Assembly: GCA_010093995.1 (NCBI GenBank)
Contig: ML992508.1
Location: forward strand, 1,026,506 to 1,090,505
Reading direction: 5' to 3'
Length of the DNA: 64,000 nt
From: Elsinoe ampelina
Lineage: Eukaryota
Shown piece after piece: positions 1 through 58,938 of the stretch (position 1 is its first letter; the number at the start of each line of letters is the position of its first letter). Under the pieces are notes generated by a model, which was given only the letters and a program-made list of their open reading frames with translations, had not been told where the DNA came from and ran no database searches. The position numbers and the translations under genes were made by a program.

Positions 1-882
1 GCCCGCTCCACCCTCACCCCCTCCCGCCGCGCCCACCACGGCGTCCTAACCCTCATCCGCACCGACTTCCTCTCTTCCCAGCAATGCACCCTCTCCTCAC
101 CCGCCTGGGACCACGAGGGCCGCTTCTCCATCACCACCACCTCAGGCCTCCACGGCTGGCCCAAGCTGAGCATCTGGAACGTCTACGCCCTCAACGGCAC
201 CGACTACCCCTTCCGGGACCCAGTGACGGGGCGGCTCCAAGGGACGAGACACGAGCGGAAGCGACAAGTCCACGGTCTACTCCAGCAGGAAGTGAGGAGG
301 TTGGAGGCGCAGGGGGTACAGGTGGTGTTGGCGGGGGATATGAACATCGCTCGGGATGCACGGGATGGGTGGCCGAGTCTGAGGACCAGGCCGGTGGAGC
401 ACGTCGTCAACCGGGAGGATTTCGTGGGGAGGTTTTTCGAGGAGGGAGGGGGGAGGGAGGGGTTGGGCATGGTGGATACGTTTCGGGAGGTGAATGGGGA
501 GGAGGCTAGGGGGTATAGTTATCGGCCGAGGGGGGTGGAGTGGGGGAGTAGTTGTGATAGGGTGGATTATGTGATGGTTTCGAAGGGGTTGAGGGGGAGG
601 GTCAGGGAGGCGGGGATATTGGAAAGTGAGCAGGAGAGGGGGCCGAGTGATCATGTGCCTGTTTTTGCTACGCTGGATTTTGGTGGTGGGGAGGAGGGAG
701 GGGAGGGAAGTGAGGAGGGCAGAGAAAAGGAGTGCGAGGAGGAGAGAGACGAGCACGGAGAAGCGAGTTGGAACAAGCAGGATCGGGGCAATGGTAGTGA
801 GCATGACAAGGAGGAGTCATTGCCGGAGAGGAAAGATGGAAATAGCAGGAAACGAAGTCGATTTAGCAATGGGGTATCTTGA
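1..882 (+). CDS. Exonuclease III / AP-endonuclease (EEP superfamily) protein, 5'-truncated by the window edge
   Basis: Frame 1 is open from base 1. It contains NVYALNG, LAGDMNIA, DRVDY and GPSDHVPV, matching the EEP/ExoIII catalytic motifs. Confidence 0.85.
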   Translation, partial: ARSTLTPSRRAHHGVLTLIRTDFLSSQQCTLSSPAWDHEGRFSITTTSGLHGWPKLSIWNVYALNGTDYPFRDPVTGRLQGTRHERKRQVHGLLQQEVRRLEAQGVQVVLAGDMNIARDARDGWPSLRTRPVEHVVNREDFVGRFFEEGGGREGLGMVDTFREVNGEEARGYSYRPRGVEWGSSCDRVDYVMVSKGLRGRVREAGILESEQERGPSDHVPVFATLDFGGGEEGGEGSEEGREKECEEERDEHGEASWNKQDRGNGSEHDKEESLPERKDGNSRKRSRFSNGVS

Positions 883-965
883 ACGACCAGCCAACGCCAC
901 CCCTATGACCGGATACCAGACCCGTGTGAGATTGTGCATACTGTGCATGAGGCATTCGCAGCTCG

Positions 966-2743
966 TCAGTGCCCTTTCTCCGGACTGCTACCAGTAGCAC
1001 TTGAGTCCAAGCTAGTTCGAAGACCACTGTCAGAGTAGAGCGAGTCCCTCACTCTTCGCACTGTGCCTTTTGACCCCTTCAGGCCACCGGCATCATAATC
1101 ATCCCCTTTGAACTCCTTCTTCGGCCAGTCCTTACAGATATCAATGTTCTTGCGTGGATAGATGAGCTCAAGAACGGTGTACAGCAGATAGTCGACTACC
1201 ATGCATATCACAAAGAGCTTTCCTGCCCAAACTCCACATCCGTAGTACCGTTTCAAGCGGTCGATCAGGGCAAAGGACTTTGTGTCATCCGTCATAACCA
1301 AGTCGTAGACGTTCTCGGTTCGTTTCGCTACATCGTTCCAGCTATACATCATTCGCACCTGTTCGTGAAAGCGATCTCTTCGTATCACTTGTCGGCCATT
1401 ACCCATAAGCGCATCGACAGCCTCACTAGTAGCACGGACAAGGTCGTCCTCTTCAGGCTTAGCGAAGATCGTCATGTGTCCTGGTAGTACTTCTGGAATA
1501 CCACCGACTCTTGTGCAGACGATGAGCAAGTTGCAGCTCGCGGCTTCCACAAGCACAGTCCCAAATGCTTCTGTAAGCGCCGGGTGGAAGTAGATATGTC
1601 CTCTGACCATGACGTCTCGAACCTCTTCGTGCCGAACTGCGCCGATAAAGTCCACTCGGTCGTGCAGAATGTGTCTATCGAGCATTTGCTCCAAATCTAT
1701 CGCCTTTGGTCCAGATCCAGCAATGATGAAGCGGACATTGGGATGTGCTGCAAGGATCCGTGGGATGGAAGCGATCAACAAATCGGTACCTTTGTTATAG
1801 AAGAGTCTGGAAATGACAACGATATTGATAGGGTCATTGGGTCCAAGCGGCTGAGATGTGATGGGCGGAGGTGGGGGTAACAATGGATTGGCGTGAGGGT
1901 TTGGCGAGTTGACCTCGGACGGATGTAGTGGTCGAAAATTTGATGCCACGACTGCGTTCGGGATGACAGAGACGATCAGAGGATCCAGCGACGCTCTAAG
2001 CACTGTGTTCTCTTTACTGCAACTTGTCAGCCTATGTGAAGCCTGCGTATACTGAGAGACTCACCAAGTATGACTGACACAGATGACATGATCGATGTCG
2101 CTCAGTGTAAACTTCAGTAGCTTGTTTGTGAGGATACTAGCTGCATCTGCAAAGCCGAATAAGGAGTGGTCGGTGAAGATTGCACGCAGGCCCATGGTCC
2201 TAGCATGAATGATCGCCTCTTGGCATAAATTGCTGAGACTGGCATGGCCGTGTACAATTTGAATCTTCTCCCGTATAACAATGTTGCGGAAAAGCGGGAA
2301 GAAGCTGAACACGGTCGGGAATGTGGTCTCTCGATAGATGACCAGAAATGGGCAATAGTAGACCTTGAGCCCATTCGTCAAGTACCGGACACCTTTACGA
2401 TCTTCGTATGCGTGTGTGATGATGATGACCTTGTGGCCTCGATCGATCAATTTCTGACGAGTGTCAGTATTCATCATTGGCCATTCAAGAGCTGTTAGCT
2501 TGGACCACATAGGGGGTTGACTGACTGTTGACAATTGGTAGATGTGACTTTCGACTCCACCTGAAAAGATCAGACTGGGCTATCATGATATCTCTGGTCT
2601 CCAAACCTGGTTGTGGGAAGAAGAAGTCGCAGACCATACTAAGGACACTTTAGCACGAGCAAACCCCATGAGACGCGTAAGACGGCGTGCCTGATACCTG
2701 GGGAAGGATTGGGGTGCACTCACGCAATATTGTATGATGGCAT
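966..2743 (-). CDS. GPI3: Phosphatidylinositol N-acetylglucosaminyltransferase catalytic subunit (PIG-A/GPI3/SPT14), GT4, multi-exon
   Basis: Spliced N-terminus [38 protein letters not shown] over three micro-exons. Also [33 protein letters not shown] and a C-terminal TM segment. Confidence 0.95.
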
Positions 2744-2989: not shown

Positions 2990-5374
2990 ATGGCTCCCCT
3001 CTACGCACGTTACGTGCCTCCGAAGAAGATCTCTAAGGCGCCATCAGCTGCACTTGTCCAAGAGGCGCATATCCAAAACACCAGCGGCAGCGCCGATGCA
3101 GACCCCTCCGAGAAGAAGAGGAAGCGATCAGCAGAAGAACAAGCTGAGCGAAAGCTACGAAAGGTCGCAAAGGTCTCGGAAAAGGCTGGAAGATTCGCTG
3201 GGGAAGCTTCGAATGGCGACGAGGGACATACCACCGGTGCAACAGGAGAGAGCACTGCGTCGACGACGAGGTCGGCTGACCCTGAGGATGCGGTGAATGG
3301 AAACAGTACCGCGGACCTGTCTACGTCCAAACACAAGTCAGTGTTGTCAAAGTTTCATAAGTCAACTCGGAGAGCAGCACTCGCTGTTGAAGAAAATGGG
3401 CAGCCCGGCGGTGAGCAAGAAGAGATAGAGTCAAAAGAGCTTCATGATCTGGTGCCTCTACCGCAACCCGAGAAGGAACAGACACCGGAATATGCTCAGA
3501 CGTTTTCCACATTGCCGGAGTGGCTCGAGAAGCCCATTCATGTACTCTCGGGTGATAAAGCACCCTTTGCAGACCTGGGCATCCATGAAAAGACCACATC
3601 ACACCTGAAATCGAAAGGATATTCGGACGCCTTCGCTGTTCAGACTGCGCTAATACCGCGGCTGTTGACCCAGATGGACTTTCTGCCGTACCGACCTAAC
3701 GATATCTGCGTCAATGCTCCTACAGGAAGTGGAAAGACCCTCGGTTATGCTTTGCCCATCATCGAGAACATGAAGCGCCATCAAAAGATTCGAAGATTCA
3801 GAGCTGTGGTGGTGGTCCCTACCAGGGAGCTCGTCAACCAAGTACTCTCTACCATGCAGATGTGCGCGGCAGGGTCCAGTCTTGTCGTCGCGACTTCTAT
3901 TGGAAATCAAAATTTCTCTGAGGAGCAAACCACGTTCGTGCAGCAGGATGAGAGGTTCAGTCCCGAAGCGTATGAGCGGAGCATGCGCTATATACGTAAA
4001 AGGCAGATGTTTGAGGAAGACTTCGAGGACGACTTCGCAGAGGACGAATCCATGGCCAACAAGCAAGAGCAGCATATCAAGAACGCCCTCACATGTACGC
4101 CATACCATGTCCCCCGGTACCTTTCGAAGATTGACGTGCTTGTTTGCACACCGGGGAGGCTCGTGGAGCATCTACAGAGCACGGCAGGCTTCAGTCTAAA
4201 AGACGTTGAGTATTTGGTTATTGACGAGGCAGATCGACTTTTGGATCAAAGCTTCCAAGACTGGGTCAAGGTTGTGAATAAGTCGCTCAAGGAAGATTCA
4301 GTGGAGAGTACGAATGGTTTCTCAATCCGCCAGAAAAACGTCCGAAAGGTCATTCTTAGCGCAACCATGACCACCGATATCTCTCAACTTGCTTCGCTTG
4401 ATTTGCGACGGCCGACCATGATCACCGTGAGAGGCTTTGGAAAAACCCAAAATTCATCAGGTACAGACATGGAAATTCGAATTAACGACAAAGGGGCGTT
4501 CGAGCTTCCGGCGGGTCTGGTGGAGTACGCAGTGCCGATTGGAGGCGATGCTGAGAAGCCACTACATTTGCTTGCGTTACTGGAGCAAATGCTACCCTCC
4601 GGCAAGAGCATGACGAAAAGGAGTAGCAGAGAGCGGTCAGCATCGATCTCGTCGACATCAACTTCTTCCTCTGACTCTGATTCGTCATCTATGTCGTCAA
4701 GCGAATCGAGCAGTTCAAGTTCCTCGTCTGAAAGCTCATCTTCCGAGTCTGACTCGGCCTCGGACTCGGATTCGGACTCGGACGTAATGTCTGAAATGGG
4801 CTCACCCAAGAAAATTCTCGAGGATGTAATACCTTCTGCGATATCAAGAGTCAAACCTGGACCACCACAGTTGCTGATTTTTGCAGCTTCAACATCAGAA
4901 GCGCACCGACTGCACTATCTATTACGGTCACTCCTACCGCGTATCACTACCGATGATCCGACTTTAACACTGCTCACCCGGACGCAGTCGAGTTTGTCAG
5001 CTCTGAATTCGTCCAATCCTCTGAAGGTGAACATCATCATCTCGACAGATCGAGCTTCGCGCGGACTTGACCTCCCGTTGACACACGTCATCAATTACAC
5101 CATACCTCGTTCGTTGGAGTCTTACGTTCATCGAGTAGGACGAACGGCTCGTGCTGGCAGGCGAGGAGAAGCGTGGAGTCTTTTCAGTGACAAGGAAGGT
5201 CGATGGTTCTGGAACGAGATCGCAAGGGCCGAGAAAGTTGCAAGACAGAGCAATCTCGAAAGGCGAAAGATCAGCATCGGGAAGCGATGGAAAGACGGCA
5301 AGGACAAGGACGAATATCAGAAAGTGCTGTCCGATATGGGGAAGATGGTAGACGGAGAGAAGAAGAGCAAGTGA
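2990..5374 (+). CDS. DBP6: DEAD-box ATP-dependent RNA helicase, Dbp6-like (60S biogenesis)
   Basis: APTGSGKT, VVPTRELV, TPGRL, IDEAD, SAT and HRVGRTARAG motifs. MAPLYARYVPP start and a Q-motif FAVQ typical of Dbp6. Intronless. Confidence 0.88.
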   Translation: MAPLYARYVPPKKISKAPSAALVQEAHIQNTSGSADADPSEKKRKRSAEEQAERKLRKVAKVSEKAGRFAGEASNGDEGHTTGATGESTASTTRSADPEDAVNGNSTADLSTSKHKSVLSKFHKSTRRAALAVEENGQPGGEQEEIESKELHDLVPLPQPEKEQTPEYAQTFSTLPEWLEKPIHVLSGDKAPFADLGIHEKTTSHLKSKGYSDAFAVQTALIPRLLTQMDFLPYRPNDICVNAPTGSGKTLGYALPIIENMKRHQKIRRFRAVVVVPTRELVNQVLSTMQMCAAGSSLVVATSIGNQNFSEEQTTFVQQDERFSPEAYERSMRYIRKRQMFEEDFEDDFAEDESMANKQEQHIKNALTCTPYHVPRYLSKIDVLVCTPGRLVEHLQSTAGFSLKDVEYLVIDEADRLLDQSFQDWVKVVNKSLKEDSVESTNGFSIRQKNVRKVILSATMTTDISQLASLDLRRPTMITVRGFGKTQNSSGTDMEIRINDKGAFELPAGLVEYAVPIGGDAEKPLHLLALLEQMLPSGKSMTKRSSRERSASISSTSTSSSDSDSSSMSSSESSSSSSSSESSSSESDSASDSDSDSDVMSEMGSPKKILEDVIPSAISRVKPGPPQLLIFAASTSEAHRLHYLLRSLLPRITTDDPTLTLLTRTQSSLSALNSSNPLKVNIIISTDRASRGLDLPLTHVINYTIPRSLESYVHRVGRTARAGRRGEAWSLFSDKEGRWFWNEIARAEKVARQSNLERRKISIGKRWKDGKDKDEYQKVLSDMGKMVDGEKKSK

Positions 5375-6621
5375 CCTACAGACCCGCAGATACACAACCT
5401 CTGCAGAAGACTGGCGTGTCGCCACTCGGCGTCCGCATTCGGCTGCAGGAGTCGAGGGGTCTCGCCCAGTCTTAAGTAAGACACATATGTGAGCGCTTGG
5501 GTTGCTTGTACCACCGTCAATGGTTGAGCCTGGTCACGCTGCTTGCGGCTGAGCATGTAATGCAAGACAAGCGGACCTGAGTAACCCTCGACGCAGCGGT
5601 AAAACCAGGTAATACGCGCACAGTCATAAGAGGGCCATAAGCCGCTCTAATATGAACGCACTGAGCACGATGTTTGACTTCCCAGCCATCTCAGCCGCGC
5701 CCGATACATAGCATAACGGGGAACAGGCCGAATCATGTCCCGCCATATAAGAGCAGTATTAATGCAAGCATGCCAAGAAATACTGTCCGCTGGCGCAGTG
5801 CTGGGCGGAGGTCAGCGGCGGTTGTCATCGTGCATTGACCGGGAATCTGGTAGAGACCGCAGAGACGAGCTCCAGTGATGATTGGACGGCAGAAGCTCAT
5901 CGAGTCGTCGCGTTCCTGAGGCGCAATGAAAGCGGCAGAGATGTGTGTGACTGACTCTGCAGAGCAGGTGTTGGTGATGGGATGAGATGGACATGCGTAC
6001 GCGTGCACTTCAGCTTCCCATGCAAATCGTTCTAATCGCCCCGTCCTGAAGAAGAAGTCAAGAAGTCCATCTCCCGCTTTTTGGACAGGGGCGTGCCTCA
6101 TCTCAGCCAGGCAAAGCCACGCTGCAATGCGCGCCATGCCCGATCCATGACCCCACTTTGTCACCTCCTGCAACTCTCGTTTCTGTTGCTGCATCTCCGC
6201 TTTCTGATTGCACATTGGAGACTTCGCGGACTCCCCTCCGCTGCCACAGATGCAGCGAGCCGACATGGGTAGAGGTTGCACCGATCGGGTCCCCGTCTCC
6301 AATGCCATTTTGCCAGCACATCCGTCGTCTTTGGCCGAGTTTCCAGTTAAAGGTAGGTCAAGAGCTGCCGAGCTTCAATGACGGACGCATCGCCCGGCGT
6401 CCAAGACTTGCTCTCTTGGATCCGCAGCGGTGATCTTGGTGCATATCCAGCAAAACCTCCTGGTCAGTCCTGTCCCTCGAGGTTTCAGGGTTTTCTCATT
6501 GACACTTGCTTTCTGTTCCTTACCACATTTCTCTCAATCCCCAAAACCTTGCCCTGTAACACTCGTTTCGGCTCGAACCACACATTGCAGGACCGCAAGG
6601 ACTAGCGATATCGTCTATGAG

Positions 6622-11874: not shown

Positions 11875-12816
11875 TCACAGCTCATCTTTCGCAGTCACAA
11901 TCTCGGCTTCATCCAAAGTCTCCGTCAGCGACCCCACTCTCTCCCTCAAAGGCTCAAACACCCCCACCAACCTCTTCTCCCTCCCCTCCCTCAATCTCTC
12001 ATCCCTAAAGGTCCACTCCCCAAACCACCCCCTCGCCTCCTCCCACTCCCCCGTCTCCTCCGCCCGCGCCACCACATCCCTACTCCTCAACATAAACTCC
12101 ATGCGATTCGGCATCTTCTCATCCCCATACCAATAATCCGGAAACTTCCCATACCTCTGAAACTTCGCCTTCCAACTCTCAAAGTCCGGCGTGGGGTAGT
12201 GCAGCACCACCGCTTGCTCGGCGGGTACTTTGCGTTCTGATTCCCGCATGCCCCAGCCACGAAAGCCGTGCGGGCCGTTGGGCTTGATGCCAGGCTTCAG
12301 ACGGACGGCGGATTTGCCGTTGCCATAGGCCATGAATTTGTTCTCGCGGGAGTTGAGGAGGAAGTTGGTGCATTCTCTGAAGGGGTCGGTGACGGGGTGG
12401 GAGAGGGGGATGGCTTCGTAGTTGCTGAAGTGGAGGGCTGGGGCGCCTTGAGACAGGGCGTCGAAGTCCCATGTGGAAGGATGGGAGGGGAAGTACAGTA
12501 GCTCGTCGGTGTCGAGGTGGAGGAGCCATGAGATGTCGTAGTTTAGTGGACCGTGGAGGAGCAGGTCGATGGCGTCGGCGAGGTTTTCGTCTTGGCGGAG
12601 CATGATGCGGGACTCTGGCGACATCTCTGGGGATTTTGTGGAGCCGAGGAAGACATAGACTGGTAGGTCTTGTCCGATCAAGTCGGCGAATTGACGTTGA
12701 GACGAAAGCGAGTCGGCGTAGATGATTATGAGAGTGACGTATTGTAGGTAGTATGCAAGCCATGTCGAGAATCCAAGGCCAGGAGCAAGACCTGTTGTTA
12801 CGAGCGCGATTGACAT
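11875..12816 (-). CDS. GT-A fold glycosyltransferase-like protein resembling plant KOBITO1/ELD1 (Glyco_tranf_2_4-like)
   Basis: Intronless 313-aa ORF with WLLHLDTDELLY (DxD), FSNYEA, DPFRE, YGNGKSAVR, PNGPH and AVVLHY in the same order as KOBITO1 (from recall). Confidence 0.75.
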   Translation of the reverse strand: MSIALVTTGLAPGLGFSTWLAYYLQYVTLIIIYADSLSSQRQFADLIGQDLPVYVFLGSTKSPEMSPESRIMLRQDENLADAIDLLLHGPLNYDISWLLHLDTDELLYFPSHPSTWDFDALSQGAPALHFSNYEAIPLSHPVTDPFRECTNFLLNSRENKFMAYGNGKSAVRLKPGIKPNGPHGFRGWGMRESERKVPAEQAVVLHYPTPDFESWKAKFQRYGKFPDYWYGDEKMPNRMEFMLRSRDVVARAEETGEWEEARGWFGEWTFRDERLREGREKRLVGVFEPLRERVGSLTETLDEAEIVTAKDEL

Positions 12817-15756: not shown

Positions 15757-18700
15757 ATGACAGACAATGGCTTCGGACGAGCGCCGCCGCGAGTCAATGA
15801 GCCTGAGAGTCCCTATACATTCCGCGAGCTTCTCAAGGATGTCCCCCTCTCCGCGGCGGAGGAGGAGAACGCGGCGCAGCCATATATAACCTGCGTAGAC
15901 TATTGGGGTAGGACAGGCATGGTCTCACTTGACATACGTGCTGACAGCAAGCAGATTCAAATTTATATATCGGCGGATCTAATGGCGAGCTTCTTCACTT
16001 CGTTTCGATACCCGGCGAGGACGAGTCCGACCCACCAACTTTTATTCTTGCCTCACGATTAGAACCGCCTTTCACTCCGCCTGCGGCTGGCAGTGACCTT
16101 CCTGGAGTCCAGCAGATCCTGCTATTACCCTCTGTCAAGAAAGCATGTGTGGTATGCAATGGCACTTACTCGTTTTACACCCTGCCTGAACTCAGCCCGG
16201 CCTATGGTGGGAAGATCAAGCAAGGCGACTGCAACTGGGTCGGCGGGCTGGATGAGAACAGGACTTATGAGGAGGATGAGAGCGTCATCATCATCATTTG
16301 CCTCAAGCAGAGGATTCGGGTGATTCGGATTGGAGAGCAGGCAAAGCGCATCCGAGATATCGAGCTACCTGGTTGCGTCAATGTTAGGAGGCGTGGAGAT
16401 CTGGCATGTGTCGCTGACGAGAAGTCATACTCTCTCATCGACGTGGTGAACCAGCGCAAGATCGATCTCTTCCCCATCTCCTCGGTTCCAGCAAACATCT
16501 CGAGGGCGCCGAGCCCGATCCCAAGTCCACGAAGATCCGGTGAAGGACCACGACCTCGGCCTGTATCCATGCACTTCCCGAACTCGGCCGAAACTGCAAG
16601 TCCGATCCGATCCCACGTCCGCGGCCATGAACGGATATCTAGTTTGGGAGCGGAGCCACGAAACACTGACAGGTTGACCCCCGACAGTCCTTCTCAGTGG
16701 CCATCCAGAAGATCGTCAAGACAATTTAGCCCGGGACCAGACAGTCCTGTTCGAAGTCGAAGCCCACTTGCACAGTCTCGTGACGGTGATGACAAGCCCT
16801 TACCTGCGCAACCCACCGAGCCAGAGTTTCCTCCACCTCCCCCGGAGCCACTGAGGCCACTGATCCTATCGCCGTCGCCAAATGAATTTCTGCTCTCCAC
16901 GGGCACCATTAGATCAGATCCTGGAGTGGGGATGTTTGTCAATCAGGACGGCGACGTATCTAGAGGCACGTTGGAATTTTCGACATCTCCTAGTGCCTTG
17001 TTACTGGACGGCCAGAGCAATGGACCCGAAACCCCTCAATCACCAACGCCGCCGAGCGGTGACTGTCAGGTCATCGCGCTGCTCAGACGTCAAGGAAGCA
17101 ATCAGATGGTCATCGAAACGCAAGGACTTGACGCAGATCCTTCTTCGAAAGCATATCTGAGTATCCCGAACACTGCTGATGAGGCCGAGATCATCAATCC
17201 TGGGCTCTGTCAGTCCACATCGGAGAACACGATCTCTACGCCAAACATAGTCTTCAAATTGGGTCTTCGACGGTTGTATGTAAAAGACGCCACCGAAGCT
17301 GGGCGCCAGAGCGATGATGCCAAAGCTAAGCAGGAAGATCAATTGATCGAGCGATTCGCGACAACGACGACAAGATCCGTGTTTTTCATGAAACAGAGTC
17401 TGTATTGGCTGGTCCGCCATCCCATCCTCCTCAAGCTGGATGCTCGGCTCGACGGTGCACTGAAGTCAACAGCCACAAGCTCGCTACTAACCGTGCAACG
17501 ATCCGAGGCAGAGTATGTCTTCAACAGCTTGCGAGGCCGAGATCCACAAGACGAGATACAATTCATGACATTCAACTACATCAGACAAAAGGCCGCAGTC
17601 CTTCTATTACTTGACCTTATGATCAAGACAGCTCATGGTACAGGTGCATCTCAGAAGGACCTGCAATATACGCAAGAAGCTTTACAATCAAGTGATGTGG
17701 AACCAAGAGTCGTTCTGTCTCTGATCCCAGCACTTCGAGACGAAATCAGCGAGAGTGACGACGGGATCTGGGTCCCGGGTGGTCTTCGGTCCTTGATCGA
17801 GCAGGTCCAGTCAAATGCCCAGCTGTCTTCGCTACAGCATGATTCAGCGACGTTCTACAACAACATACTGCCACTTCTCAAGTCATACCTCCTCTCTTGG
17901 CGCAAGAAGAAAGGATTCGGATCCATCGCAGACGAAGTACACGTCTTTCAGACTGTCGATGCGGCGCTCTTGCATGTCCTCCTTCTGCTTGATTCACGAT
18001 CTCCCTCTGGACCGGCCACTGCAGGATCTGTACGGGCCGAGTTGAATGATGTGGTAGACAATGGAGTGGACTGCTTCGATCGTGCTGTCGTGCTGATGGA
18101 GTCTTTCCATCGACTGTACGTTCTTTCTCGCTTGTATCAAAGCCGTAAGAAAGCGCCACTAGTCTTGTCCACGTGGCGACGCATTCTGGATGGCGAGAAG
18201 GACTTGGGTGGAGAGCTCATCGATGGCGAGACGGACATCAGAAGATACCTTACAAAGATCAAGGACACTTCTCTCGTCCGCGAGTATGGAGCATGGTTGG
18301 CCAACCGAAATCCACCACTTGGTGTCCAGATCTTTGCCGACGATTCCTCCCGCGTCAAGTTCACACCACCCGAAGCTGTAGCACTACTGAAAGAAAAAGC
18401 CCCAAATGCTGTTCAGCACTTTCTCGAGTATTTGGTCTTCACCAAGAAGCAGCCCCAGTACTCTGCAGATTTGATCAGCTTCTATCTATCCTCGCTCCTG
18501 GATACTCTCAAAAGCTCTGATTCAGCCAGAGACGCCTTAAAGACCACAATCGAGGTCTACCTCTCGATACCTGCTCCAAAACAGACATTCCTTGCCTTTA
18601 CGGAAGATAACGCTCCAAGAGAAGAGTGGCACGCACATCGCCTTCGCCTCCTCCAACTGCTGTCATCCACGTCGCCAATCGACATTCCCTCCATCAGTAC

Positions 18701-19334
18701 ACAAATACAGCCATACGGTGACCTTTTGGTCCCAGAGACCATCGTGCTTTTCTCCCGCGCCAACAAGCACGAAGAAGCTCTGACCGCCCTCGTCCACCAG
18801 CTAGGCGACTACGACACCGCAGTGCGCTACTGCCTGCGTGCCGGTAGAGACGTCTTCCCCATCTCGGTGCGCATCAAGACATCACCATTGTCGGATCCAT
18901 CACCCCAAAACACTACACAGCGCAACCTCTTTGCTCTCCTACTAGAGCAGTACCTCTCCATCAGCGACCTTGACACTCGTCTTTCACTAGCCAGCGAGCT
19001 CCTCGCACGTTTCGGTGCTTGGTTCGATGCTCCCACGATCCTTTCCAGGATACCAGCTGATTGGCCAGTCCGAGCCGTCGAAGGGTTCTTGACGACCGCG
19101 ATGAGGAGTCTGGTAAAGGAGAGGCGCGAGACAGGGATCATTCGAGCACTAGCGGCAGGCGAGAACTTGAGAGTCAGCGTCGATGTCGTAGAGCGACAAG
19201 AGCATCTCCGTCCAGTTGTGCAGGATAAGGGAGAGATTGGTGGGACGGTCGAAGGCAAGAGCTGGGCCGACAGTGGGTATGGAAGCATGGGGACAAGCCA
19301 GCGGAGCGAAGGCACGGTAGGAGGGGATGAGTAA
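15757..19334 (+). CDS. CNH-domain Vps39/Vps3/TGFBRAP1-family endosomal tethering subunit
   Basis: Exon 1 ..ITCVDYW, intron ~15908-15954, then a long ORF. It has a CNH-like beta-propeller (GMFVNQDGDVSRGTLEF) and a clathrin-repeat-like solenoid (HEEALTALVHQLGDYDTAVRYC, IPADWPV). Confidence 0.85.
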
Positions 19335-19490
19335 GTGGTGACATGTGGTGTAATGTATCGACAAGAAATGAACTTTTTCTTGCTCTCTTCAAACCGCCAT
19401 TCGCTCTCTCTTTCACTTCCGCGTATCTTCCCACACCGGCCTCCTTCTTCTCAATCCGTTCTCACCCCCCCCCCCCCCTCCTCTGGCCCT

Positions 19491-20344
19491 TTACTTGAAA
19501 ACCGGCTTCAGACTATACTCCTTCACCGTCAAAACCGCATTCTGCCCCACGAAAGGCTCCGTCCCGGCACCCACACTCTGCAAGACCTGACTGGTCGGCA
19601 ACCCCTGATTCTTGGTCAAATAATCAATAAAACCCTTCAAATCCCCCTTGAAACTCCCCACATTCCCATCCGCCACAAACGAAAAAACCGTCATCTGCCC
19701 ATTCGGCCCTTTCCACAACTTCCAGCTCTTGCCCGCCAAGCTCACCGTGGCGATCGGACTCCCCGTCGAGCTGATGGGGCCGGCGCCGCCCAGGGCCCCT
19801 ACCCAGATCATGATTTCGTACACGGGGGAGGAGGTGGCGCTGGACCCGGTGAAGAGGTCGTAGGCTACGTTTGCGACGATGTTGGAGCCCGAGTAGGTCC
19901 AGGTGTAGACCGAGGCGAGGGAGACGAGGCGCGAGAGGGCCAGTTGAGGGGTTTTGGTCACGGCGTTGGCGTAGGATTTTACGTTGTAGGGTCCGTTGGC
20001 CCAGGACCATCTGGGGGGGAAGGGGTTAGGAAGGGAAGGGAAGGGAGGGGAAGGGGGAGGGAGGAGGGAAGGCGTACTTGGTGTTCCATTTGATGCCGCC
20101 TGAGCCGGTGGTGCCGTCGAGGTTGGTGCATTGGCTGCCTGTGCCGGCGTCGCGGCCCCAGAGGTTGTTGTAGAGGGTGTAGTTGCCTGGGAGAGGGTTA
20201 AGGGGAGGCTTGGTCGAGGAGAAGATGGGACGGACCAGAGACGACATTGTCCCATTGTCCGCACATGGCGGCGCGCTTTTCCAAGGGTTGAGCCGAGGCG
20301 GTCACAGCCACCAGGGCTGAGGTGAAGAGGGTAGAGAAGTGCAT
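19491..20344 (-). CDS. Secreted glycoside hydrolase family 12 (xyloglucanase/endoglucanase), 2 introns
   Basis: Signal peptide MHFSTLFTSALVAVTASA and a KR site. CGQWD, YNNLWG, VKSYAN, NVAYDLFT, YEIMIW (nucleophile) and GTEPF (acid/base). Confidence 0.93.
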
Positions 20345-28205: not shown

Positions 28206-28210
28206 TATAA
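28206..28210 (+). promoter_or_regulatory. Putative TATA box of con-6
   Basis: TATAA followed by a CT/CA-rich leader ~125 bp upstream of the ATG. Confidence 0.45.
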
Positions 28211-34289: not shown

Positions 34290-35294
34290 AGTGAAGATGC
34301 GGTGCCTGCTCCGCTACTGAAGGTTACCGTATCATATCAAACGGCATTGTTATGATTGAGCACGGAGCTACAATGCGACGAATAGTTGAGATCACCGCAC
34401 AGGAATGGTGACACTGCTATTTGTAGGAGAGCGGAAGCGTGGATGCGGTTGGAGTTACAGAGTGTTGGCCGCGAAGCGAAGCAAATGCGGCCACTTGCAG
34501 CCTATGCCTTGGCGCAAGGGAGGACGAAATGGCACACTACCAGACACTTTGTCGTGTAATATGTGTATATGGCTTGGTCATCCAATAGCTGGTAGTACTA
34601 TCTAAAATACTACCAGGTTTGGCGGCACTACTAGCTATGGAGCAGGAGACGTGCCATTGTTAAGTTCTAGTAGTTTGTGTGAAGTGTACCGCTCTTGTGT
34701 CAAGCATGCAGGTGATGATCATGGCTTCACAATGCCAAATCTCTAGAAGTCAATACGTAAATCCATGGAGACCCATCCGCATCAATTTATCAGATCCATA
34801 GTCACCACAGGAACAAATTATGCGAGCTCAGAAGGGTCCATCATTGATCGATACTTCCTGGTAGTTCTAGCACGGCCGATATCGGGAACCACATCTTGTG
34901 GCGACTGTTGCTCGTCGGCCAGCTATGTGAGACAACGAATGTTGCAGATGCGGTCGACCATACTCCTGAAAGTGCAATCGTCGTAGCTTGCAGAAGCATA
35001 GCCCAGAGCTCCAACGTATGCATCTATGACGCTCGAGGCTCACCAGGTGACACCCTGATCGAGGTCGCGAACTTTGACTATGCACATCGTGAACACAATA
35101 GTGTCGGATCCGCAAATGTGTAGTGACGCTTCATATCTTCCATAGACAATGGCCGTATCGCGTAAACGACAAAGGCCTGGTGCCGTCGTCGAGCCGAGCC
35201 TGTGGACCTGCCACGCGCTCGAGACTTGCCGTGATCATGTCCGCATCACATTGGTTTCGACCACAATCTGGCTTGTGAATGATCGTGGTGCTGT

Positions 35295-37924: not shown

Positions 37925-39231
37925 ATGGCTGAAAAGCCCGTCTTTGTGGCAACCCATCCTAGGGCATGCTCTACAGCTTTTGAGCGGGTAACATACTCCG
38001 GACGCCTACCATTGGCTCAGGATTGACATCTCCCAGGTCTTCATGACATCCCGCGATCGACTTGTTAATGTCCACGAACCTTTCGGAGACGCCTTCTACT
38101 TTGGTCCCGAAAGGCTCGGCAATCGTTATGAGAATGACGAAAAGGCACGACTCGAGAGTGGTTTTGCCGACTCGACCTACAAATCTGTCTTTGATGATAT
38201 TCTGGATCAGGGCAAAGAGGTGTGATTTCTCCGCGCATTCGTTTTTGTCTCTATGTTTCAAGTGGCTACAATCAGCCTTCTTTGCCCCCTTTCAACCCCA
38301 TAAACACCGGGAAGCATATTCGGCCCCTGTTGTTCGAGACCAAAGGTTTGGGTGAACTTCTCTATACTGAAGACTAGTCGCCGCTTCAGTAGGGACAATT
38401 CACTGATCTCAACGGCAGGGTAAGCGAGTCTTTATCAAGGACATCGCTCACTACCTATCCCCACCCAATGGGAAGCCCGCCAGTATTGCCCCTTCCCTAC
38501 AGAAGGTCAAGCGAGGTGTCGGCACATCTGACAGCTTCGAACACACCAACGGGAAGGCAGTAAACGGCGACAGTTCCTCCCTCCCCTATCCCACGGAGCC
38601 CGAGCCAGGCAACCCCACCGTGGTCCCCTCCGAAGTCCTCCGCCAATTCCACTTCGCCTTCCTCATCCGCCACCCCAAGCACAGCATCCCCAGCTACTGG
38701 CGATGCACCATCGACCCGCTCGACAAAATCACCGGCTTCCACAACTTCATGCCCGAAGAAGCCGGCTACGACGAACTCCGCCGCATCTTCGACTACATGA
38801 AAGACACCGGCATCGTCGGACCCAGCATCACCGATCACCCCACCAACGGGCACCAAACCAACGGCCACTCCGGCGTCCCCATCACCCTCGTCGACGCCGA
38901 CGACCTCCTCAACGCGCCAGACAGCATCATGCGCAAATTCTGCACCGCCGTCGGCATCGAGTACAGCCCTAAGATGCTCGAATGGGACACGGAAGAAGAC
39001 CACGCTTTCGCCAAGGACAAGTTTGAAAAGTGGAAGGGCTTCCACGAGGACGCGATCAATTCGACGGGTCTGCATGCGAGGGAGCACGGGAAGCCGGAGA
39101 CGACGCCGGAGCAGGATTTCGAGGAGTGGGAGAAGAAGTACGGCAGGGAGGCGGCGGAGGTGATTAGGGACACTGTGGAGAGGTGTTTGCCTGATTATGA
39201 GTATTTGAAGGGGTTCGCTATCAAGGCTTAG
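37925..39231 (+). CDS. Sulfotransferase-like P-loop fold protein (fungal family), 2 introns
   Basis: MAEKPVFVATHPRACSTAFER|VFM, HEPF, GKRVFIKD, FLIRHP..SIPSY, LVDADDLL and FHEDAINSTG. Confidence 0.82.
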
Positions 39232-39939
39232 GAGGATGGGGGTGCGGGGATGACGGGAGGGGTGTCTGGGCGAAAGGGTGTGGCAAAGAGGTTAAGGGAT
39301 GGGGTCAAAAGGTATTGGTGCCGGGCTGGAAAAGGATGGAGGACTGAGGAGAGGGATGAAAAGGTCAAATTGATATGAACAGTACATGATTTTCACGAGT
39401 TCTTCTTTATGCAGAATGAAACACAGTACATACTTGGCACCACATTCACTAGCTTCGAAGCGCACACAGATCTAGCTTGATGTGATGTCAATCGAGCACG
39501 TGACCCCCACCGATAACGGTCAAGAGCCTACCGCGAAAACAGGCGAGACATGTCTCCCAAGTCTCCCAGCCCCTAGCCTGGTACACTACAAGAACCATAC
39601 ACCCGATGAACGATTGGTATGTGGAGATCATTGATATATAAAGTCTAAGCAGGGTATCTCTCCTCACGCACCTACGCCACAAAATGCCAGATTACCCAAT
39701 TCCCATCCTCGAACCCTTGATGCGTATATGTATACCCCTATCCCAAGCCGACCTATGCACATCCTATCTCTTGCCCACCCCTCGTCCATCACTTCCAGTC
39801 TATCACACTCAGCCCCTTCATCTGCATCCCTGCACGTCTCATTGTCCACAACAACCAAAGCACCCGCGTCCCGATTCCACCCGCAGCGTGATCTCCTGCT
39901 GCCGTGACCGACCTCGTTCGAGACCATCGCCAGAAGCAT

Positions 39940-41179
39940 CTACTTCGTCTTCAAAACCTTCGGCGGCGCCAACTCCGTCTTGAACACCCGATCCCAAAAC
40001 CTGCTCGTCACGCCAAACCCATTCTCGTAGTCCGCAAAGTGATGCTGGAGGTGGTACTTCTTCAGCTCGCGCCAGTAAGCAGGGAGGCTGTGCTTGTCAG
40101 CATTGCTCATGCGATATACTCCACAAGACCAAGAGGGAAGTAGAGGCCCGGAGGGGGGAAACTCACTTCTTATGATGCAAAAAGTAATGCGTCAAATCAT
40201 AGCAGATGTACCCGAAAATCCCCCCGCAGAACACCGCCGTGGCTGCCTCCCACTGGTAGAAAAACAGCGCGTGGGCGAGTTTCCAGAAGGGCGTGGCCAG
40301 GACGATGAACAGCGTGGGCGGCATGACGAGGCGGTATTTATCCATGGGTAGATAGTGATGGATACCGTGCAGGAGGAAATGCAACGTGATCCCTACCCGG
40401 TTATCCGGGAGGTGATTGTCGAGGTGGAACAAACATCTGTGCAGCCCGTACTCGACGATCGTCCAGATGCCCAGCCCTAGAGCCCAGTGCGCTCCCAGCG
40501 CGAACGGGGAGAGGGCTTGCGAGGAGAGATACGTCCCGTACAACACCGGGGGAAGCCAGACCGTAGGCACGATGTACCAGGGCGTCAGGGAGAGGGGCTC
40601 GAGGAAGTTTCCGAATAGAGGGGCAGAGGCGCCGCCGCGGTAGTGACGCGGTCGGTGGACTTGTTCGAGGTAGAAGTCTTTGGAGAAATTGCCTCGCCAG
40701 ACTTGCATGAGGAGGGGCCGGTTGAGGTCGAGGAACTTGTGGGTCTTGTAGTCGGTGGAAATGTCGGTTTCGCGGTGGAGGTCGTCGGCAGAGGACATGC
40801 CTGTGTTTGCGTAGACGGGAGGGGATTGTGTTGCGAGCTCTTTCTGGCCGTTGGCTGTGGGTGGGAGGGGTACGATGGAGGCTGGGTCCGAGGACTTTGT
40901 GACGCTGTCGATGAGGTTTTCGTCGGCGACGAAGCCGATGTGATATTCTTCTAGCACGTCGTAGGCTGATTCGGAGTGTGCATGTGAGATGTCATCCTCC
41001 ATGATCTCTTTGACGTCTTTCCCGCCATACTCGAGGATGAGGTCGCCTCCGCCAGGGTGGTCGTCGAGGAAGGATGTGATGTCGTATACTTTTGTTCCTA
41101 TCGTTACGTAGCAGGCATCGCTGGTGTTCTTGGATGCGACATCGGCGACAGGCAGTGTCGGAAGCGTCCTGCCTGGCAT
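39940..41179 (-). CDS. SCS7: Sphingolipid fatty-acid 2-hydroxylase with an N-terminal cytochrome b5 domain, 1 intron
   Basis: HPGG b5 motif and His boxes HRCLFH, HGIHH, HYFLHH and HLQHH; ends FGVTSRFWD. Confidence 0.95.
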
Positions 41180-52447: not shown

Positions 52448-53241
52448 ATGGCAGAAGTCCGCCGCCGCAACCCCCCAAGCAAATCATTAGACGACCGCAT
52501 CCGAGAAGAAGACGACAACAAACCCATCAGCTCCTCCATCTCCTTCCTCGACATCCTCCGTATCCTAGGCGGCATCGCTCTCCTCAACTCCGCCCTCTCC
52601 TACTACATCACAAAGGACCCGGTCTTCTGGGGCTCACGACCATGGTGGACCCAACCCACCCAAGTCCAACGATGGATTGTACCTTCCCTCCTCCCCCCAT
52701 GTCCCCCCCTCCCCCTACGCACCCCCGCTAACCTCCCCAGAACGGCCCCCTCCGCCTCACCGACGCCCAACTCGCCGCCTACGACGGCACAGACCCCACC
52801 AAACCCATCTACCTCGCCCTCAACGGCACCATCTACGACGTGACCGTCGGACGCTCCTACTACGGCCCGGGCGGCATGTACGGCTTCTTCTCCGGCAAAG
52901 ACGCCAGCCGAGCCTTCATCACGGGGTGTTTCGACACGGACCTCACGCCCGACACGCGCGGCATCGAGGAGATGTACATCCCGCTTGACGACGAGGAGGC
53001 GGATCAGAAGCTGAGTAAAGGGGAGTTGAAGACGAGGAGGGAGAGGGAGACGAGGGTCGCGAGGGAGAAGGTCAGGCAGGGGCTGGAGGGGTGGGCGAAG
53101 GTTTTTAGGGGGGATACGGGGAAGAAGTATTTCAAGGTTGGGGAGGTGAGGAGGGAGGAAGGGTGGTTGGAGAAGCTGCCGAAGAGGGAACTGTGTGAGA
53201 AGGCAAAGGGCCAGAGGAAGAAGAGGAAGGTGCAGGGCTAG
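52448..53241 (+). CDS. Cytochrome b5-like heme/steroid-binding (MAPR) membrane protein, 1 intron
   Basis: N-terminal TM, then LAAYDGTDPTKPIYLALNGTIYDVT..YYGPGG.Y.FFSGKDASRAF.TGCF. Confidence 0.9.
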
Positions 53242-53562
53242 GGAGCAGGTGAATGGGGATGGGATATGGTTGGTAAATGAACATGATTTGGATTGTTTGA
53301 TGGGTGTAAGTGATGGGTCACATTCACTGATGCTGGTGCTGCTCGAGGCGTGAGATCCGCTCTGTACACCGAGGACATGGAATGTGCCGCAAGCGATCTG
53401 ACAAAGACTGATATTTGCGATGCACGGAATTCGGTCTCTCCACGTGGCTTCAATGATCCTCGTTCGCGCTGTGCTACGAGATGTATCCGTAAATCATCAA
53501 ACGCCAATGAGGCCGTTCCTCAGATGTCCCCATGCTCATCCACCCGGATCATATCGATGACT

Positions 53563-56677: not shown

Positions 56678-57392
56678 CGGGCGACAAAGTTTTGTTTTTG
56701 GACTTTGACACGACTGCATCAGTGGCGCTTAATATCCACCATTTGCGAACAGATCTCTTGGGGAACGACATCATGACGGACGGTGTTTGGGCTTCTTTCG
56801 ACCGAATCGCAGGTTGTCTGGTGTAGATAGCATGTGATTGCAATTATATTTACTCTACACTTCATACCTGGACCAATAATCGTCCTGCAAAAGGAACACT
56901 AACGGGTCCAGGCTGCGAAAGGCACATAGAACCCCTACGCACTGATCCCACATTGGGAAGAGATTTCACACATTTCACATGCCTCACATTCTTTCCACAT
57001 CACACGCCAGGAGGACCTCTTCTAACACGTGGGCAATCTCAGATCTGAAGACTTTTGCTTTCGGATTCCACCTCACATCTTTCCCGCAGTACTCGTTTCA
57101 CCCGGTTTCCACATTGCTAACATCGACAGCTCCCCACATGGCTTGCCTGGGGAGGGTCTTTACACTGCAGTACATGGGCGTACAATACAATGAAAGAGAT
57201 GCAATCACGGACCCACGTCAACAGAAGACGAGATTACAAACCCCTCTCCCGCGCGGCAAGAGGCATATTTATCTATGATACATCTAGCCACCCCTCTCAC
57301 TCCTTTCTCCTTTCTCCTTTCCCTACCCTTCCCCTCTACCCCCTCGCCCCACCATCCTCTCCTCTCCCTTTCGCTTCCCTCACTCCCCTGAC

Positions 57393-58938
57393 CTAAGAAA
57401 TCATCCTCGTCATATCCCCCCGGATCCTCGCATAATCCAACAACCCCTCAATCTGCCCCACCGCCGAGATGGCAATGTCACGATCCCACAACTTCCTCTG
57501 GGCAAAATCCTGCACGTCCTTCGCCGAGATGGCACCGACCACACGCTCCACCTCCTCTGGGCTGAGGCGGCGGCCTGTCGTGATGGTTTGGCGGCCAATG
57601 TCCTCTGCCACGGCAGTGGTGCCGTCGAGGGAGAGCAGTAGCGAGGCCTTGAGTTGGGACTTGGCGCGCTCGACTTCGGAGTCGTTGACGGCGAAGGAGA
57701 GGCGGGACCACTCGCGGAGGGTGAAGTGGACGAGGTCGTCGATGCGGGTGATGGCGTCGGTGACGAGGTAGATGCCCCAGAGACTGAGAGAGGGTTAGCA
57801 AAGTCACAAAGGGGGGAAGGAAAGAGGGGTCTTACCCGGTGTCGCTGTAGCTGGTGGAGAAGCTCATGAAGCTGTTGGCGAGCTTGTTCTCGTGGACGAA
57901 AGTGCTGAGCTTGCTGCCGAGATAAGGGGAGTTGCCCATGGCGCGGTCCCAGTTGCCGACGATGGCCTGGGCAACCAGAGCGGTGAAGTAGTCGTCGTCC
58001 TTCCATGAGACACCCTCAACTGCAATGGCGATGTTGGCGGTTGGGATGGTGTCGTCTCGGATACGGACTTCGGAGCCGACAAAGTCGGGCTTTGCCTTCT
58101 GAGCGGCGGCGATGGCTGCCTCGGTCGACGTTGGTGGTTGGTTGGGGACCTTGCCGAAGTACTTCTCTGCGAGCTGTACGAGCTGTTCGTGAGGAATGCC
58201 ACCAGCACCGACCAGTACCATGCGGTCAGCAGTGTAGTTGGTCTTGATGTAGCTGGTCAAATCATCACGGGAGATGGACTGGATGTTCTCCTTGGGTCCA
58301 AGGATGGTGCGGCCGAGGGGCTGGTCCATGAAGGCAGTTGCGTGAAGGTGGTCAAAGACAACCTCCTCGAGCTGCTTGTCGACCTCCTCCTGCTCGCGGA
58401 GGATGACATCACGCTCGCGCTCGATGGCAGAGCCCTCGAGCTTGGAGTTTTGTAGAATATCGGCCAGGATGTCGACAGTGTTGGGAACATCAGAGTTGAA
58501 GGACTTGGCATAGTAGACGGTGTTCTCGCGGGAGGTGTAGGCGTTCAGGTGTCCGCCCATGTTCTCAATCTCAAGCTCCAATTGTGACTGCGACCTCTTT
58601 TGCGTTCCCTTGAAGGCCAAGTGCTCCAGAAAGTGCGCGGTGCCGTTTGTTCGGTCTGTTTCCGCACGGCTTCCAGCATCAATCCAAACACCTACAGTCG
58701 AGGTTTGCGCATAAGGTGAGTATTCGGAGGCAATCTACATCTCCATCAGCCATTGATACCACTATCCAGCATTTCGATGTCCTACCGTAAAGCCATTGCT
58801 CAACGTTGTGCTCTCCGTCTTCACTCCATGACTGACCGGAGTCGCAAGGCCCCTGGTCACCGGCGATCTGATGGCATTGAGAGCGAGTCGGTTGCGAGTA
58901 GAATTCCTCAGATTGAGGGCTAGCCGCCGGGAGGCCAT
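57393..58938 (-). CDS. MAS1: Mitochondrial processing peptidase beta / complex III core 1 (M16), 2 introns
   Basis: Arg-rich presequence, inverted zinc motif GTAHFLEHLAFKGT, LNAYTSRE and SYSDTG|LWG. Confidence 0.95.

Follow-up and report, generated by a model that had tools for sequence, protein, structure and literature searches.

Intragenic GC-skew islands in a 64-kb window of Elsinoe ampelina probably represent the within-gene skew gradient known from fungal genes, at very high amplitude

Fungal genes have been described as C-biased at their 5' end and G-biased at their 3' end, a bias that is present at 4-fold degenerate sites and reaches into the untranslated regions (UTRs) while the AT skew stays flat (McLean & Tirosh 2011, BMC Genomics 12:638, PMC3315797). 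The species set of that study includes Dothideomycetes, and the correlation between skew and expression was very weak (R about 0.07-0.1, C. albicans). At the start of transcription or translation, the genes of fungi and plants have also been reported to show a C>G skew peak, with excess C on the sense strand (Fujimori et al. 2005, PMC555766), and such a 5' peak has been described in Leptosphaeria maculans, a Dothideomycete with AT-rich isochores (Bourras et al. 2012, PMC3411245). In the parts of these two reports available to us, the peak is confined to the neighbourhood of the start, whereas a flip to G inside the coding sequence is the feature found here.

Here, we analyzed a window of 64,000 nt from Elsinoe ampelina contig ML992508.1 (GCA_010093995.1; positions 1,026,506-1,090,505, forward strand), using (G-C)/(G+C) as the measure of skew and the minimum of the cumulative skew as the switch point; the window-level statistics given below describe about 25-35 genes of this single 64-kb stretch. 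The original prediction had listed ten islands in which a C-rich top strand turns G-rich, and these are real, as the sign of the skew switched inside each of the ten. Three further islands were identified, of which the one in SDH4 is clear and the two at the 3' ends of the DBP6-like and Vps3-like genes are weak. At their peak, the left arms reached a composition of C 0.47 and G 0.10, and the right arms G 0.47 and C 0.13. As had been anticipated, C-to-G switches were far more common than G-to-C switches (9 vs 2 with 300-bp arms and 8 vs 1 with 400-bp arms, both at an absolute skew above 0.3), while 200 shuffles within 2-kb blocks gave mean expectations of 0.00 and 0.01 for such abrupt switches. 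The maximum absolute skew in a 300-bp window was 0.77, compared with a mean of 0.36 and a top value of 0.46 in the shuffles. Superimposing 10 switches at their switch points yielded an average profile with a minimum of -0.61 near -225 bp, a jump at 0 and a value of +0.57 near +275 bp, returning to near 0 past about -550 and +400 bp. In this aligned profile, G+C was 0.56-0.62 within the islands versus 0.50-0.55 outside, raised as an island-wide plateau with no central peak, and an inversion of the AT skew was not seen in bulk across the 10 islands.

Our comparison suggests, with a probability of about 80%, that the islands are transcription units, or the 3' parts of such units, showing the within-gene GC-skew gradient already described in fungi. 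The phenomenon itself is known (McLean & Tirosh 2011), and here it appears at very high amplitude in a Dothideomycete. The two share the sense-strand bias toward C at the 5' side and G at the 3' side (third-position skew of about -0.8 to +0.9 in the island genes), the bias at 4-fold sites, the extension into UTRs, the shifted amino-acid use, the lack of a bulk AT inversion, and the generality across genes and fungal species. What differs is that McLean & Tirosh 2011 reported modest genome averages, whereas here single genes attain third-position skews of -0.8 and +0.9, with a third-position G+C of 0.8-0.9, beside flat neighbors. In addition, the choice of A and T at 2-fold sites flips here, which is not described in McLean & Tirosh 2011, and one island, in an aminotransferase gene, is not anchored to a gene end as in their pattern.

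All 13 C-to-G switch points fall in coding exons (p about 0.001, hand-calculated from the roughly 60% of the window that long ORFs cover by a hand sum), and in 12 cases a stop codon follows 84-668 bp downstream; the median distance from switch to stop is about 290 bp. On the forward strand, the islands comprise the 3' part of a gene of the Exo_endo_phos family that is truncated by the start of the window (1..874, assigned by a Pfam match; switch at 214, 668 bp before the stop codon at 880-882), where the third-position skew moves from -0.87 to +0.94; the last exon, together with the 3' UTR, of a gene of 352 codons that has a weak sulfotransferase-like match (38417..39440; switch at 38969, 262 bp before the stop); a small gene with a cytochrome-b5-like heme/steroid-binding domain, together with its 3' flank (52448..53434; switch at 52955, 286 bp); and the SDH4 (CybS) gene (59200..59990; switch at 59654, 259 bp), which was absent from the original list. 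On the reverse strand, they comprise an unnamed 313-codon ORF that is spanned entirely by its island and has only a sub-threshold GT2-like Pfam match (11878..12816; switch at 12260, 385 bp); a GH12 glycoside hydrolase gene that likewise forms a whole-gene island (19378..20255; switch at 19823, 332 bp), its stop codon lying 156 bp from the convergent stop codon of the Vps3-like ORF; the SRP19 gene with its 3' flank (28755..30113; switch at 29582, 495 bp), whose 3' end overlaps with the convergent con-6 transcript; an ARL3/ARFRP1-like small GTPase gene (33506..34300; ATG at 34290, intron 34123-34240, stop codon 33512-33514; switch at 33889, 377 bp); a 386-codon gene with a cytochrome-b5 domain (39690..40930; stop codon 39940-39942; weaker switch at 40026, 84 bp), whose G-rich zone extends into the 3' UTR; and the 3' part of a MAS1-like (M16 peptidase) gene (57290..58150; switch at 57557, 164 bp), which shows a moderate C bias across all of its upstream coding sequence. 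The sole atypical case, not 3'-anchored, occupies exons 1 and 2 of a class-III aminotransferase gene (25950..26900, reverse strand). Its switch at 26565 lies 198 bp past the ATG and 1452 bp before the stop, and the G-rich zone runs for about 600 bp and stops at the intron 25924-25975, the remainder of the gene being neutral. The original prediction placed the aminotransferase island at a 5' end, the MAS1 island at a 3' end and others across whole genes, and these placements are correct. Its statement that long neighboring genes lack the skew holds for COY1, which is flat, but not for the DBP6-like DEAD-box helicase gene (4900..5400, forward strand; weak switch at 5112, 262 bp upstream of the stop, skew -0.31 to +0.33) or the long Vps3-like ORF (18630..19371, forward strand; weak switch at 19079, 255 bp upstream of the stop, skew -0.33 to +0.36), both of which switch at their 3' ends.

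In every island, the sense strand is C-rich upstream and G-rich downstream, and in five of the six switch-bearing genes longer than 1.2 kb the switch lies in the last quarter of the gene (hand-calculated binomial p about 0.005). Only two strong G-to-C changes were found (19371 and 39487), both between convergent stop codons. Among the 41 window ORFs of at least 150 codons, the top-strand skew rose from the left to the right third in 31, with a right-minus-left difference above +0.4 in 12 and below -0.4 in none, and did not rise in 10; flat genes in the window include a calmodulin-like gene, NACHT, COY1, SDR, Gtr1 and others. The position of the switches in coding exons and, for 12 of 13, near stop codons does not support the proposal that the islands bear no relation to gene orientation and are centered on a fixed site. 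The equal polarity in forward- and reverse-strand genes is uninformative in this respect, because a C-then-G pattern also reads C-then-G on the opposite strand, and for the same reason a gene of about 0.8-1 kb resembles a self-contained island of 1 kb.

The same gradient was found in other fungi. Of 80 metagenome loci carrying ARL3, 12 identical ones were dropped, leaving 68 distinct coding sequences, and the 3'-minus-5' difference in skew at 4-fold sites was positive in 58 of these; both parts were strongly skewed in 28, and none was strongly reversed (0/68). The other ORFs of these loci showed a left-to-right rise in 122 of 155 cases when a minimum length of 150 codons was required and in 61 of 67 when the minimum was 250 codons, and in the long ORFs the 4-fold skew was about -0.2 in the body and +0.47 across the last 40 codons. 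The original prediction had named a skew that simply tracks position within transcripts as evidence against itself; as the gradient recurs in the same gene of most fungi sampled and in most long ORFs nearby, this is largely what we observed, though not in every gene.

The skew is strongest at synonymous, neutral-like sites. Codon counts from nine ORF pieces of eight island genes showed that 4-fold sites of the sense 5' arm carry C at 63% and G at 10% (n=655), those of the 3' arm G at 64% and C at 16% (n=461), and those of non-island genes 26-27% of each (n=2139). Between the 5' and the 3' arm, the share of C among pyrimidine-ending 2-fold codons falls from 89% to 39%, and that of G among purine-ending ones rises from 34% to 85%, so that the choice between A and G and between C and T flips at 2-fold sites without a bulk inversion of the AT skew. 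An RNA-supported intron in a sense C-arm has a composition of C50/G9, and one in a sense G-arm G22/C8. The 3' flanks are skewed by +0.54, +0.38, +0.72 and +0.43 and the 5' leaders by -0.22 to -0.41. The claim that introns and UTRs follow the skew accordingly stands for introns and most UTRs but fails for the 150 nt past the ARL3 stop codon, which are not G-rich (skew -0.15).

The sense strand of an island gene is thus C-rich and G-poor and turns G-rich and C-poor a few hundred bp before the stop, usually on into the 3' UTR. As to the cause, we give roughly even odds to a mutation or repair bias that is strand-asymmetric and coupled to RNA polymerase II. Its sign would change from the initiation/elongation part of the unit to its termination part, while purifying selection would preserve the proteins and limit the drift to synonymous and tolerant sites. 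This is the mutational hypothesis put forward for the opposite skews by McLean & Tirosh 2011 (PMC3315797). We infer that either such a transcription-phase-dependent mutation/repair asymmetry or selection for termination may lie behind the gradient.

In the latter case, which we regard as possible but distinctly less than probable, the same gene-linked pattern would be kept by selection on transcription instead of by mutation bias. G-poor upstream RNA would avoid R-loops or structure, and a terminal zone rich in G and poor in C would favor pausing, termination assisted by R-loops, or C-avoidance, chiefly at abutting genes; an adaptive C-avoidance model was offered by McLean & Tirosh (PMC3315797). 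In support of this notion, human genes with a positive GC skew at their 3' end are closely arranged and form terminal R-loops, according to the available part of Ginno et al. 2013 (PMC3787257). The human 3' ends described there, which belong to a subset of genes in gene-dense, close arrangement, share with the islands the positive sense skew, but human 5' ends are G-skewed whereas those here are C-skewed, and the link to neighbor arrangement is only marginal in this window. The third-position skew of the last 80 codons had a median of +0.27 in window genes with a convergent neighbor (n=14, two neighbors unverified) versus -0.09 in tandem genes (n=4; Mann-Whitney p=0.046), and several convergent stop codons are just 83-278 bp apart, with one pair of transcripts overlapping. 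Among ARL3 orthologues with a Pfam-verified downstream neighbor, the median was +0.33 for convergent (16/19 positive) and -0.18 for tandem genes (2/6 positive), but this contrast was not significant (p=0.09, or p=0.54 with one clade collapsed), and one tandem orthologue stood at +0.89. Signals at the level of motifs also argue against selection, as G-runs were slightly below the expectation from composition (350 vs 379 +/- 12) and canonical G4 motifs, found in 13 of 22 arms versus 9.3 +/- 2.0 in shuffles, gave no motif-level signal, being not enriched beyond composition. Introns that follow the skew fit a process at the level of DNA or nascent RNA, without separating selection from mutation. 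More speculatively, the G-rich 3' arm might, instead of being intrinsic to gene ends, be written or selected mainly where the polymerases of a convergent neighbor enter the 3' end of the gene. If so, the islands would be the places in a very compact genome where Pol II traffic meets head-on and terminates, and the 3' G-bias known from fungal genes would largely reflect neighbor orientation.

Far less probable is a footprint of a fixed site unrelated to gene structure, whether an origin of replication or a hotspot of recurrent meiotic double-strand breaks, with strand-asymmetric synthesis or repair on each side. The polarity, with C (and A at 2-fold sites) to the left of the switch and G and T to its right, is the one seen in origin-centered skew jumps, which in bacterial chromosomes and mammalian skew domains turn the top strand from C-rich to G-rich at one point, as here, and repair synthesis running outward from a break with a G:T-mispair bias would give the same polarity. 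Eukaryotic origin-linked skew is weak and spans tens to hundreds of kb, unlike the islands, whose skew is extreme, limited to +/-400 bp with no run over tens of kb, and placed 84-668 bp before stops. The switches are 1-13 kb apart, mostly 1-7 kb, which we judge too dense for replication origins. An origin skew jump is not supported, given that the skew is about 0 within 400-550 bp and the switches are anchored near stop codons. For a fixed site speak the fairly constant arm size of about 400 bp with raised G+C, the aminotransferase island that disregards gene ends, and the SRP19 island region, where 17 of 723 positions differ in contigs of three other runs (0-1 in other genes); against it, contigs of other strains cover five islands, and in four of these the divergence is not raised. 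Intragenic recombination hotspots have been reported in another Dothideomycete, but the accessible portion of the same study describes GC-biased gene conversion as weak or absent in Zymoseptoria (Stukenbrock & Dutheil, PMC5844332). The confinement of all 13 centers to coding exons weighs against any such site, and the recurrence of the gradient in ARL3 of 58/68 other fungi and in 61/67 long neighboring ORFs argues for a gene-intrinsic cause. Taken together, origins and break hotspots are not supported.

Filamentous ascomycetes generally favor C-ending codons, a preference that could contribute to the 5' C-bias; the skew also extends to first and second codon positions, and K/E/Q codons number 99 in the 5' arms versus 248 in the 3' arms. 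That translational codon preference and the amino-acid composition along the proteins yield the skew as a by-product is nevertheless hardly credible, being contradicted by the presence of the skew in introns and 3' UTRs and by 4-fold sites that swing from C 63% to G 64% inside one gene; opposite tRNA optima are impossible for two halves of a gene. The original view that codon or amino-acid choice alone is insufficient is upheld by the same three classes of sites. The 5' arms favor GAA, AAA and CAA, and the 3' arms T-ending 2-fold codons such as GAT and TAT; GAA and AAA in the former and GAT and TAT in the latter are contrary to the usual optimal codons.

Every skew island listed in the original prediction was confirmed by a 400-bp composition profile together with sliding-window scans across the window, and each contains a switch, namely, a sign-change point of (G-C)/(G+C) between a C-rich left arm and a G-rich right arm of the top strand. 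The observation is thus both real and strong. The cumulative (G-C) curve displayed minima at 214, 12260, 19823, 26565, 29582, 33889, 38969, 40026 (weak), 52955, and 57557. A further clear island, absent from the original list, was found in the SDH4 (CybS) gene with its switch at 59654, and the DBP6-like DEAD-box helicase and Vps3-like genes each have a weaker switch at the 3' end (5112 and 19079, respectively). When 300-bp arms with |skew|>0.3 were required, nine C>G switches and two G>C changes were identified in the window (eight and one with 400-bp arms), as compared with means of 0.00 and 0.01 in 200 shuffles within 2-kb blocks. Aligning 10 islands on their switches revealed a clean N-shaped profile, in which the skew stood at -0.61 about 225 bp before the switch and at +0.57 about 275 bp after it, returning to near 0 outside the range from -550 to +400 bp. 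The G+C content within these aligned islands rose to 0.56-0.62, and no inversion of the bulk AT skew was observed in the same profile.

To place the islands on genes, Pfam searches of 130 stop-to-stop ORFs and eight further ORFs were combined with contigs from four public sequencing runs aligned to 25000-44900; these contigs were spliced at GT..AG and CT..AC joints and served solely for exon/intron positions and transcript ends. Genes are densely packed in the window, which comes from a filamentous ascomycete. Its ARL3/ARFRP1-like small GTPase (hereafter ARL3; 33506..34300, minus strand) shares 93% protein identity with its counterpart in Elsinoe australis and 92% with that in Myriangium duriaei, placing the organism in the Dothideomycetes, close to Myriangiales. 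Three groups of islands were distinguished. Six cover whole short genes (an unnamed ORF at 11878-12816, GH12, SRP19, ARL3, a small b5-domain gene, and SDH4), six cover the 3' parts of longer genes (Exo_endo_phos, the M16 peptidase MAS1, a 352-codon gene ending at 39231 with a weak sulfotransferase-like match, a 386-codon cytochrome-b5-domain gene, DBP6, and Vps3-like), and a single 5' case comprises exons 1 and 2 of a class-III aminotransferase. Convergent gene pairs were found at 880-968, 19332-19493, 29087-29095, and 59911-60137, with stop codons as close as 83, 156, and 221 bp. Given this spacing, and since the con-6 contig runs beyond the SRP19 stop codon in the con-6/SRP19 pair, the 3' UTRs must overlap or abut.

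The original prediction considered the islands to be gene-independent footprints centered on fixed sites, because their polarity is the same in plus- and minus-strand genes. A C-then-G pattern is, however, identical when read on the reverse strand, so this argument cannot show gene independence; rather, it is the obligatory appearance of a gene-linked pattern whose sense strand is C-rich at the 5' side and G-rich at the 3' side. What is informative, therefore, is the position of the C>G switches and of the G>C changes with respect to genes. All 13 C>G switch points were located in coding exons (p ~0.001, calculated by hand with long ORFs, also summed by hand, occupying ~60% of the window). In twelve cases, the switch precedes the stop codon by 668, 262, 385, 255, 332, 495, 377, 262, 84, 286, 164, and 259 bp, and in the aminotransferase by 1452 bp; the distance to the start codon ranged from ~200 to >3000 bp. 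Of the six genes that exceed 1.2 kb and carry a switch, five have it in their last quarter (hand-calculated binomial p ~0.005, with the MAS1 start being approximate). Both strong G>C changes are flanked by the two stop codons of a convergent gene pair, one (19371) by those of Vps3-like and GH12 and the other (39487) by those of the gene ending at 39231 and the cytochrome-b5-domain gene. The interpretation as site-centered and gene-independent is thus not supported, and the switches, that of the aminotransferase apart, are anchored near the stop codon.

The skew extends to neutral-like sites. Along island genes, the skew of third positions changes from about -0.8 to +0.9 at a third-position G+C of 0.8-0.9, and in long genes third-position G+C is ~0.55 and the skew is small. 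Degenerate sites were sampled in eight of the island genes, a set that leaves out MAS1, SDH4, and the cytochrome-b5-domain gene; the eight are represented by nine ORF pieces, some of which take in a few leader codons before the ATG. At 4-fold sites of this sample, the sense 5' arm contained 63% C and 10% G (n=655) and the 3' arm 64% G and 16% C (n=461), as compared with 26-27% of each in non-island genes (n=2139), and this flip within the same gene makes the window a very clear single-gene illustration of the fungal gradient. The C share of 2-fold pyrimidine-ending codons was 89% in the 5' arm, 39% in the 3' arm, and 56% in non-island genes, and the G share of purine-ending codons was 34%, 85%, and 66%, respectively. 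Protein composition is bent as well, since K/E/Q codons increased from 99 in the 5' arms to 248 in the 3' arms. Among RNA-supported introns, that of ARL3 in the sense C-arm contained 50 C and 9 G, and that of the aminotransferase in the sense G-arm contained 22 G and 8 C; the skew of introns outside the islands was about -0.1 to -0.5. The 3' flanks were likewise G-rich (+0.54, +0.38, +0.72, and +0.43), except for the one past the stop codon of ARL3 (-0.15), which is overlapped by a contig of the convergent side. The cause is therefore not the choice of codons or amino acids, a point on which the original prediction, arguing from introns and UTRs, was right.

These properties correspond to an already described feature of fungal genes, present here at an unusually high amplitude. 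McLean & Tirosh 2011 (PMC3315797) reported that in most of the 64 fungi they studied, a set with filamentous Dothideomycetes in it, the coding strand has a C bias at the 5' end and a G bias at the 3' end. In their analysis, the effect was seen at 4-fold sites, reached promoters and 3' UTRs, and shifted amino-acid use, while AT skew was flat along genes and the link to expression was very weak; the cause was left between mutational and adaptive hypotheses. Earlier studies describe the 5' C-peak alone (Fujimori 2005, PMC555766; Bourras 2012 for Leptosphaeria, PMC3411245), and no later paper settling the mechanism was found in a literature search that was not exhaustive.

Our broader comparisons rest on the window and on 80 fungal loci from metagenome contigs carrying an ARL3-like exon, of which 68 distinct coding sequences were kept and 12 identical ones dropped. 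At 4-fold sites of these ARL3 orthologues, a C skew of the 5' part was seen in 59 of 68 and a G skew of the 3' part in 51 of 68; the 3'-minus-5' difference was positive in 58 of 68, with both parts strong in 28 and none strongly reversed. The pooled skew along the exon rose from -0.58 to +0.36. In the surrounding ORFs, ARL3 excluded, top-strand skew was higher in the right third than in the left for 122 of 155 ORFs with 150 or more codons and for 61 of 67 with 250 or more. Such a rise was also found in 31 of 41 window ORFs, the right-minus-left difference exceeding +0.4 in 12 and falling below -0.4 in none. In long ORFs of the metagenome loci (n=11), the 4-fold skew was about -0.2 in the body, and in the final three bins of 40 codons it was +0.12, +0.18, and +0.47. 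The orthologue and neighboring-ORF counts thus identify the window islands as the strong tail of a property common to many genes and many fungi. A count of C>G and G>C switches in the metagenome loci (40 vs 26, with 25 of the 40 in ARL3 itself) was dropped as uninformative, since the two kinds of change necessarily take turns along a DNA molecule, which leaves only their placement with respect to genes as meaningful.

As for the mechanism, we favor, with a probability of roughly one half, a strand-asymmetric mutation or repair bias coupled to Pol II, whose sign would change from the body of the transcription unit to its terminal zone. This reading is favored by the skew of introns and flanks, by the 3' anchoring of the switch, and by the recurrence of the pattern in orthologues, where saturation of synonymous sites was reached long ago. 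Two simpler versions were rejected. A model built solely on transitions (T>C with G>A in one arm, A>G with C>T in the opposite one) fails because one base occupies ~63% of 4-fold sites and was gained from all three others. A model in which the sense strand of any transcription turns C-rich and read-through from a neighbor makes the 3' end G-rich fails on logical grounds, as both convergent partners are G-rich at their 3' ends, an outcome that differences in polymerase density could not produce by themselves.

Selection on the nascent transcript or on termination is the main alternative, about half as probable as the mutation or repair bias. Ginno 2013 (PMC3787257) offers an analogy, in which terminal GC skew and R-loops accompany closely arranged human genes. 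In line with this analogy, the 3' G-zone of window genes had a median skew of +0.27 with a convergent downstream neighbor (n=14) vs -0.09 with a tandem one (n=4; p=0.046). Among ARL3 orthologues with Pfam-verified neighbors, however, the corresponding values (+0.33, n=19, and -0.18, n=6) did not differ significantly (p=0.09), and collapsing one clade gave p=0.54. Replication origins or break hotspots, as originally suggested, would fit the polarity but are very improbable in view of the stop-codon anchoring, the +/-400 bp range, the 1-13 kb switch spacing, and the recurrence across species. In the aligned profile, the G+C rise formed a plateau, not the centered peak that would be a sign of hotspots. 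Our results thus guard against reading a striking skew pattern as origins or recombination hotspots. The suggested selected G4/i-motif architecture was discarded, with G-runs at or below the composition expectation and G4 motifs not clearly enriched over it. Genomes with such amplitude would provide good material for deciding between mutation and selection.

The islands also bear on annotation. Skewed islands carry long wrong-strand shadow ORFs, such as the 296-codon ORF on the non-coding strand at 52606-53493 (-) (vs 169 codons for the real b5 exon), and the longest-ORF rule therefore misassigns the strand there, constituting an annotation trap. For this reason, neighbor orientations assigned by longest ORF (convergent +0.33, tandem +0.29, p=0.63) were discarded, two "tandem" calls being really convergent RNase_PH genes. 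The skew pattern itself could serve as a strand and 3'-end cue for gene prediction.

Several genes depart from the common layout. In the aminotransferase, the flip occurs 198 bp past the ATG, is followed by ~600 bp of G-rich sequence, and returns to neutral exactly at the intron 25924-25975; third-position G+C is 0.70-0.86 with strong skew in exons 1-2 and ~0.5 with no skew from exon 3. Short genes in the window that displayed no island include calmodulin-like, Gtr1, and SDR genes. The calmodulin-like gene (34701-36050) has four short introns and contigs from all four runs. Gtr1 lies at 51063-52005 in the window, away from ARL3; in three metagenome loci (L007, L008, and L045) it follows the ARL3 orthologue in tandem at 1.5-1.9 kb, and the orthologue is without a 3' G-zone (4-fold skew -0.36 to -0.56), while in a related locus with convergent Gtr1 (L016) the ARL3 4-fold skew is +0.42.

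The AT-rich blocks at 41600-43600 and 62400-64000 have a G+C of 0.29-0.40 against surroundings of ~52% and are without long ORFs, an isochore-like layout of the kind that repeat-induced point mutation typically gives in Dothideomycetes. In the SRP19 island, 17 of 723 positions differed in the contigs of three other runs, as compared with 0-1 in other genes. Across the SRP19 gene (28833-29783), contigs of runs X2, X6, and X7 differed from the window at 17-20 positions and X1 matched it, and the X6 contig of the con-6 3' region (28465-29096) carried 16 differences and small indels. From sequence comparison, the SRP19 region looks like a divergent haplotype block of ~1 kb.
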